Of a DNA stretch of 499 nucleotides, positions 1 through 499 are shown piece after piece (the stretch's first letter is position 1; every line of letters begins with the position of its first letter). The notes beneath the pieces were generated by a model. It had not been told where the DNA came from and did no database searches. It saw nothing but the letters and a program-made list of their open reading frames with translations. A program made the translations under genes and the position numbers. The stretch is from a phage: the sequence record EF517075.1; one strand, written 5' to 3'.

Positions 1-23
1 TTCAGGCAATCTTAGAAAAAGAT

Positions 24-239
24 ATGCTGCATCTATGTAAGCAGGTCGGCTCAGGTGCGATTGTCCCCAATGGTAAACAGAAGGAAATGATTGTCCAGTT
101 TCTGATACACGATATGGAAGGATTGATGACATTCGTAGTACGTACATCATTTCGTGAGGCCATTAAGGACATGCACGAAGAGTATGCAAATAAGGATTCT
201 TTCAAACAATCTCCTGCAACAGTACGGGAGGTGTTCTGA
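24..239 (+). CDS. Hypothetical small phage-like protein; probably 5'-partial, since the frame is open back to position 3 (..QAILEKD-MLHLCKQ..). C-terminus ..FREAIKDMHEEYANKDSFKQSPATVREVF, stop TGA 237-239.
   Basis: ORF track 24..239 (71 aa from the first ATG). The same frame has no stop between position 3 and 24, and there is no convincing Shine-Dalgarno upstream of ATG 24 (only A-rich cttagaaaaagat), so the true start is probably upstream of the window. Its stop overlaps the start of the next gene (TGATG), indicating a co-transcribed, translationally coupled unit. Confidence 0.6.
   Translation: MLHLCKQVGSGAIVPNGKQKEMIVQFLIHDMEGLMTFVVRTSFREAIKDMHEEYANKDSFKQSPATVREVF
226..231 (+). promoter_or_regulatory. 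Shine-Dalgarno (GGGAGG) for the CDS starting at 239
   Basis: GGGAGG at 226-231, 7 nt before ATG 239-241; lies within the 3' end of the upstream CDS. Confidence 0.6.
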
Positions 240-448
240 TGTCTGACTATCTGAAAGTGTTGCAAACAATCAAAAATTGCCCTAAGACTTTTCAGTCCAA
301 CTATGTACGGAACAATGCGAGCCTCGTAGCGGAGGCCGTTTCCCGTGGTCACATCTCGTGCCTGACTACTAGTGGACGTAATGGTGGCGCTTGGGAAATC
401 ACTGCTTCCGGTACTCGCTTTCTGAAACGAATGGGAGGATGTGTCTAA
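239..448 (+). CDS. Hypothetical small basic protein (69 aa), phage early/accessory-region type; function unknown
   Basis: ORF track 239..448. ATG preceded by GGGAGG with 7-nt spacing; start overlaps the upstream stop (TGATG) and its own stop overlaps the next start (TAATG 446-450). By hand count about 9 K/R versus 3 D/E (net positive), three Cys, no obvious hydrophobic transmembrane segment. Confidence 0.7.
   Translation: MSDYLKVLQTIKNCPKTFQSNYVRNNASLVAEAVSRGHISCLTTSGRNGGAWEITASGTRFLKRMGGCV
433..438 (+). promoter_or_regulatory. Shine-Dalgarno (GGGAGG) for the CDS starting at 448
   Basis: GGGAGG at 433-438, 9 nt before ATG 448-450; embedded in the last codons of the upstream CDS (..K R M G G C V *). 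Confidence 0.6.
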
Positions 449-499
449 TGTCTTGTGACCTTGTGACTATTCCACGCGATGTGTGGAACGATATACAGG
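448..499 (+). CDS. Hypothetical small protein, 3'-partial (runs off the window); N-terminus MSCDLVTIPRDVWNDIQ
   Basis: ATG 448-450 overlaps the TAA stop of the upstream CDS (TAATG) and is preceded by GGGAGG at 9 nt. The frame is open to the window end (17 codons visible). Not in the ORF track because no stop falls inside the window. Confidence 0.55.
   Translation, partial: MSCDLVTIPRDVWNDIQ
452..467 (+). repeat. Perfect tandem direct repeat of an 8-mer, CTTGTGAC x2, inside codons 2-7 of the third CDS
   Basis: Direct reading: cttgtgac (452-459) immediately followed by cttgtgac (460-467). Short enough that a chance occurrence is possible. Confidence 0.4.

Follow-up and report, generated by a model that had tools for sequence, protein, structure and literature searches.

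The question raised by this stretch of phage DNA is what its second open reading frame (ORF2) encodes, and whether the product acts against the defences of the host. A first-pass annotation had described the 69-aa product as a strongly basic small protein of unknown function and a candidate host-interaction or anti-defence factor. We note that the "unknown function" of this description is overtaken by work on phage T7, whose Gp5.7 was characterised in 2017-2018 and has a deposited structure, 5LGM. Based on the comparisons presented here, we consider it very likely that ORF2 is an allele of T7 gene 5.7 and that the mechanism described for T7 Gp5.7 would hold for this allele. Its identity, synteny and conservation are direct observations of the present analysis; the observation is real, but the gene, the structure and the mechanism are already published.

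The window, by which we mean the whole stretch of 499 bases that was analysed, is 97.2% identical by megablast to T7 16912-17410 over all of its length. According to the T7 annotation, that region takes in the last part of gene 5.5, the entire gene 5.7 and the first part of gene 5.9. The features of the window are as follows:

1 to 239, plus strand: 3' part of gene 5.5 (H-NS inhibitor), codons 22-99 and the stop codon TGA at 237-239; Pfam PF11247 Phage_T7_55, E=1.3e-51, and T7 annotation.
227 to 233, plus strand: Shine-Dalgarno sequence GGAGGTG for gene 5.7, lying within the end of gene 5.5; from reading of the sequence, and invariant in 10/10 aligned phages.
239 to 448, plus strand: gene 5.7 coding sequence, 69 codons and TAA; very likely Gp5.7, host RNA-polymerase / sigma-S inhibitor, as an allele with A10T, S13N and A34V.
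434 to 438, plus strand: Shine-Dalgarno sequence GGAGG for gene 5.9, within the end of gene 5.7, 9 bases before the ATG at 448; from reading of the sequence.
448 to 499, plus strand: 5' part of gene 5.9 (RecBCD inhibitor), with R3C relative to T7; T7 annotation and the table of differences.

The ORF2 frame runs from the ATG at 239 to the TAA at 446-448, and it is tied to both of its neighbours by overlapping codons, the start with the stop of gene 5.5 (TGATG, 237-241) and the stop with the start of gene 5.9 (TAATG, 446-450). The GGAGGTG at 227-233 stands 5 bases upstream of the gene 5.7 ATG and is a 7-base perfect complement of the 16S rRNA 3' end (the anti-Shine-Dalgarno sequence), and the record of phage ETEP21B annotates a ribosome-binding site at the counterpart of the GGAGG at 434-438. 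An Rfam search at a permissive threshold returned no RNA family in the window.

The ORF2 protein and wild-type T7 Gp5.7 are identical at 66/69 residues (95.7%). A match to PDB 5LGM (E=2.8e-41) covers residues 1-69 with 65/69 identical, the deposited protein being the Gp5.7 L42A mutant that was used for NMR (PMC5569994), and a match to PHROG 1334 (E=6.7e-39) covers positions 1-69 of 69. Scans of the 69-aa protein against Pfam (E<0.1) and NCBIfam returned no family, and it was recognised only by PHROGs and by the PDB sequence search. Full-length homology, a genomic position with coupled translation signals and retention of the key residues together place ORF2 in the Gp5.7 family. The first-pass annotation had allowed that a confident match to a characterised family with an unrelated role would count against its guess; the match was found, and yet the characterised role is not unrelated to what had been guessed.

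The chemical character of the protein had been read correctly. With 4 K and 5 R against 1 D and 2 E, it has a net charge of +5.6 at pH 7 and a pI of 9.8, so that it is certainly basic, "strongly" being a matter of taste. The three cysteines (14, 41 and 68) contain no CxxC, and the view that they form no zinc finger agrees with the lack of conservation of C14 in distant homologues and with the metal-free solved fold. AlphaFold2 run on the single sequence gave a low-confidence model (pLDDT 57, pTM 0.38); from its 65/69 identity to 5LGM, the product is predicted to adopt the winged-helix-like fold a1-a2-a3-b1-b2-a4.

The length of ORF2 alone is no proof that it is a gene, because an antisense ORF of 116 aa is also present (GTG start, 2-352 of the window, minus strand). 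This antisense frame is also open in T7, NC-A and ESh6. It was considered as a gene and rejected, as it is interrupted by stops in 13a, 3A_8767 and Vi06 and the substitution pattern fits the plus-strand frame; most likely it arises as a side effect of codon usage in the genes on the plus strand. The real coding evidence for ORF2 is that substitution pattern. Gene 5.7 in 13a, NC-A, 3A_8767 and ESh6 differs from that of T7 by 7-11 nucleotides but by only 0-1 amino acids in each, and in the four closest natural relatives 35/37 of the nucleotide differences fall at codon position 3 of the gene 5.7 frame, with 2 amino-acid changes in total. Together with the GGAGGTG and the TGATG and TAATG overlaps, this pattern bears out the earlier claim that ORF2 is a real gene with a strong ribosome-binding site and coupling, and the orthologous T7 protein has moreover been studied in purified form.

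The gene is also widespread. A tblastn search found gene 5.7 homologues in 1283 phage records; the matches listed are T7-like genomes of about 37-42 kb, and the hosts among them include Klebsiella, Escherichia, Pseudomonas, Salmonella, Yersinia, Vibrio and others. In records from eight genera, gene 5.7 usually adjoins gene 5.5 and either gene 5.9 or an exonuclease gene. An alignment across genera shows M1, Y4, L5, L8, K12, S20, R24, L29, E32, A33, R36, H38, C41, G46, N48, G50, W52, T55, G58, F61, L62 and G66 to be invariant, and across the eight genera the motif EAASRGH is near-invariant and the functional residues are conserved. A megablast search of 5,426 complete E. coli genomes gave zero matches. 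From its presence across phages and its absence from these E. coli genomes, it follows that gene 5.7 is a conserved gene of lytic T7-like phages and not a prophage accessory; the prophage setting in which ORF2 had been placed gives way to that of a virulent T7-like phage.

What the protein does can be taken from work on T7. In pull-downs Gp5.7 captures E. coli RNA polymerase, and it binds the core enzyme as well as the holoenzyme; it is without effect on catalysis or on lacUV5, N25 and galP1, and it represses initiation at T7 A1, A2, A3 and lambda pR if it is added before open-complex formation (PMC5569994). Its NMR structure is an atypical, metal-free winged-helix-like fold of order a1-a2-a3-b1-b2-a4 with a basic patch, and it prefers A1 promoter DNA from -40 to -27, although very weakly (Kd ~0.6-8 mM); in the authors' model it does not block formation of the initial promoter complex (PMC5569994). 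Toxicity is abolished by alanine at F18, Q19, R24, S35, L42 or W52, the F18A and L42A proteins being folded yet inactive and the S35 alanine substitution disrupting folding (PMC5569994). A second study reported that (p)ppGpp and sigma-S build up during T7 infection, that Gp5.7 is a far better inhibitor of the sigma-S than of the sigma-70 holoenzyme, the opposite of Gp2, and that its binding site is sigma-S region 4, with open-complex formation blocked (10.1101/262279). Phages deleted for gp5.7 lyse later and form smaller plaques, the gene being dispensable in the laboratory (PMC5569994); the plaques cease enlarging on ageing lawns (10.1101/262279), and the deletion mutant is outcompeted by another phage on old cultures (PMC7617280). 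The defect is not rescued by a delta-rpoS host (10.1101/262279). The published mechanism is thus itself incomplete, because the affinity for DNA is millimolar and the delta-rpoS host brings no rescue.

Transferred to ORF2, this mechanism would run as follows. A 7-kDa middle-gene Gp5.7 would be made from a transcript of T7 RNA polymerase, with its translation coupled to that of gene 5.5 before it and gene 5.9 after it, and would fold into a compact, atypical winged helix-turn-helix-like domain. It would bind the RNA polymerase core and, more effectively, sigma-S region 4, with its basic surface facing the DNA beside the -35 element, and would keep complexes at A1-A3, the strong T7 promoters that depend on the host enzyme, from isomerising to the open form. 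Being a much stronger inhibitor of the sigma-S than of the sigma-70 holoenzyme, it would complement Gp2. Because infection would raise sigma-S by way of (p)ppGpp, and sigma-S prevails in stationary phase, Gp5.7 would be dispensable but needed for optimal growth, above all in slow-growing or stationary cells. Finally, the resulting shut-off of host transcription may be read as a signal of infection by several defence systems. Two elements of the first-pass annotation are touched by these data: the supposition of nucleic-acid or protein binding and of interaction with the host holds for the T7 protein, which engages RNA polymerase core, sigma-S region 4 and DNA near the -35 element, and the label "early" has to be replaced, gene 5.7 being a middle gene transcribed by T7 RNA polymerase (10.1101/262279).

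All 14 differences from T7 (at window positions 17, 101, 106, 112, 189, 197, 250, 260, 266, 276, 292, 339, 382 and 454) are G to A or C to T when T7 is taken as the starting point. Five natural relatives, which serve as outgroups, carry the T7 base at 13/14 of these sites, so that the derived state is that of the window. Among natural relatives the spectrum of differences from T7 is mixed, with G:C to A:T making up 23% of 262, which gives P ~1e-9 for 14/14. The mutated G follows a purine in 11/14 cases against a background of 47% (p=0.018). APOBEC-like deamination in TC context was considered and discarded, TC being not enriched (5/14 against 30% background).

The mutagenised T7 isolates K, P and P82 (AY264775, AY264777 and AY264778) share the spectrum and the purine-G preference of the window: in the same 499 bases their changes are G:C to A:T in 10/10, 5/5 and 5/5 cases, with purine-G context in 15/16. 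The window has 12 changes that are absent from K, P and P82 and lacks theirs, and so represents a different lineage. G:C to A:T changes dominate after treatment of T7 with nitrosoguanidine or hydroxylamine (PMC6042481), and the window probably comes from a chemically mutagenised (nitrosoguanidine-type) T7 laboratory lineage and not from a natural relative of T7. We also observed that C101T and C250T are common to the window and isolate K, that isolate K has N at 189 where the window has A, and that site 250 is also T in the natural phages 13a, 3A_8767 and Vi06; the changes in common with isolate K may stem from mutagen hot spots or from a brief common history. Beyond gene 5.7, the same type of change produced the missense differences T56I, G58D and D84N in Gp5.5 (window 106, 112 and 189) and R3C in Gp5.9 (454), at sites where the five natural relatives keep the T7 base.

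Several other accounts of ORF2 have to be weighed against this reading. The likeness of the Gp5.7 fold to winged-helix regulators might suggest a classical MarR-type, sequence-specific repressor that occludes promoters without contact to RNA polymerase, and the preferential binding of the A1 promoter from -40 to -27 speaks for it. We regard this as extremely improbable: dissociation constants of about 0.6-8 mM are set against direct binding to RNA polymerase core and sigma-S region 4, initial promoter complexes form despite Gp5.7 in the authors' model, and neither Pfam (E<0.1) nor NCBIfam returned a MarR/HTH profile for ORF2, the only PHROG hit of the kind being a "transcriptional regulator" at E=0.39. 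Alternatively, the main product might be a 5.5-5.7 fusion made by -1 ribosomal frameshifting close to where gene 5.5 ends, so that an H-NS-binding and an RNA-polymerase-binding domain would be joined. Relative to gene 5.5, gene 5.7 does occupy the -1 frame, which is open from base 194; the records of T7, Vi06 and phiSG-JL2 carry a two-piece "possible gene 5.5-5.7", PHROG 17900 (170 positions) spans both parts, and gene 5.5 frameshifts allowed escape from defence just as mutations in gene 5.7 did. That last phenotype is, however, equally explained by lost translational coupling; gene 5.7 has a perfect Shine-Dalgarno sequence and an ATG of its own, the free 69-aa protein suffices for binding to RNA polymerase, for inhibition of transcription and for complementation of the deletion, and on reading 194-238 we saw no X-XXY-YYZ slippery heptamer, only a strong Shine-Dalgarno sequence directly before TTC-TGA. 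A literature search on "5.5-5.7" returned only unrelated numeric ranges. A fusion as the main product is in our judgement improbable, if less so than the MarR-type repressor.

The suggestion that ORF2 is an anti-defence or restriction-alleviation factor, neutralising a host immune system directly, has a certain appeal in this setting: the neighbouring genes counter host defences or neutralise host functions (gene 5.5 against H-NS, gene 5.9 against RecBCD), and the accumulation of sigma-S in the stringent response may be viewed as a physiological barrier that Gp5.7 removes. The published data run the other way. T7 escapes defence by dCTP deaminase and dGTPase through mutations in gene 5.7 (R24W, H38R, C68Y, stops and frameshifts); escape from Kiwa, in T7 and T3 alike, comes about through mutation of gp5.7 or of T3p30, its counterpart in T3, and the protein supplied in trans restores the defence; and co-expression of Gp5.7 with RADAR2 reduces cell growth. 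These escape-mutant, in-trans and co-expression data mean that the activity of Gp5.7 is sensed by the defences and does not inhibit them, and no dedicated defence protein that Gp5.7 binds is known. The anti-defence reading is already largely refuted by the escape-mutant data, and we consider it very improbable; Gp5.7 triggers dCTP deaminase, dGTPase, Kiwa and RADAR2, and phages get away by mutating it. One might then speculate that the hypermutation of the window is a natural trace of a DNA-damaging or deaminating host defence, and that A10T, S13N and A34V were selected to tune down the shut-off and so to evade sensing by these four systems. We give this hardly any credence. The three substitutions were not found among the published escape mutations in the supplementary data searched.

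A more serious doubt concerns the activity of ORF2 and not its identity as an allele of gene 5.7. Every residue with a demonstrated role is kept (F18, Q19, R24, S35, L42, W52, R36, R60, R64, H38 and C68), including all of the basic DNA-facing arginines R24, R36, R60 and R64. Residue 13 occurs in nature as S, C, G, V, R or K, and residue 10 as A, F, D or G in distant homologues. Residue 34 is alanine in 10/10 natural homologues compared; it lies within EAASRGH, adjacent to S35, and the published alanine scan left native alanines, A34 among them, uncovered (PMC5569994). On this reading of the sequence full activity of the allele is likely, although A34V strikes a family-invariant motif. The exact protein had no identical counterpart in the public collections searched, and a 26-base exact probe spanning three window-specific substitutions had no match in viral, metagenome or genome contigs, a result that concerns the allele and not gene 5.7.

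The opposing possibility is that ORF2 is intact but hypomorphic, a gene decaying under relaxed selection in which A34V, perhaps with A10T, weakens folding or the binding of sigma-S or DNA. All 14 differences of the window are of the mutagen type and 7/14 are non-synonymous, where 67% would be expected without selection, and this mutation pattern suggests little purifying selection in the lineage of the window. The invariance of A34 in natural homologues counts in the same direction, as does the fact that gene 5.7 is dispensable in the laboratory and that two mutagenised isolates, K and K115, have lost it. In isolate K (AY264775), the sequence annotated as "similar to gene 5.7" has a stop at W52; isolate K115 (AY264776), by its name a descendant of K, has 382 bases between gene 5 and gene 6, with genes 5.3-5.9 not annotated, so that gene 5.7 was evidently expendable in those laboratory lines. 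ORF2 itself, however, has no stop codon or frameshift, it keeps all of the residues of demonstrated role, the change of alanine to valine is conservative, and both S13 and A10 vary in nature. A weakened gene is therefore a tentative alternative which we think rather unlikely, although it is far less remote than the others considered here.

As a discovery, the identification of ORF2 carries little weight, the gene, its structure and its mechanism being published. Its use lies in part in annotation: in many phage records the orthologue of gene 5.7 is entered as "hypothetical protein" or is given, in error, a name that belongs to gene 5.5 ("HNS binding protein", "suppressor of silencing"), and only a few records, including ETEP21B, name it as a sigma-S inhibitor. 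The correct label to carry over is inhibitor of sigma-S RNA-polymerase holoenzyme. Moreover, Gp5.7 is a recurrent trigger of bacterial defences, and natural and induced alleles are therefore useful reagents. The A34V allele would offer a cheap test of whether EAASRGH is needed for sigma-S binding and for the triggering of defence.

Among known systems, the closest to ORF2 is T7 Gp5.7 itself (in UniProt "Fusion protein 5.5/5.7"; PHROG 1334), with which it shares its length, its flanking genes 5.5 and 5.9 and the start and stop overlaps, and from which it differs by A10T, S13N and A34V. The MarR winged helix-turn-helix domains resemble Gp5.7 in overall topology and in turning helix a3 and a beta wing towards DNA, as seen in the published NMR work; they differ from it in the order of the elements, which is atypical in Gp5.7, and Gp5.7 has a two-stranded wing, 69 residues as compared to 80-100, no dimerisation region described and a millimolar affinity for DNA, so that the likeness is one of fold and not of family membership. 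The closest functional parallel is T7 Gp2, which like Gp5.7 is a 7-kDa middle-gene product that blocks formation of the open complex by host RNA polymerase at A1-A3. Gp2 is unrelated to Gp5.7 in sequence and fold, and its binding site is the beta-prime jaw within the DNA channel; it is essential and acts strongly on the sigma-70 holoenzyme but poorly on the sigma-S holoenzyme, and Gp5.7 is the reverse on each count.
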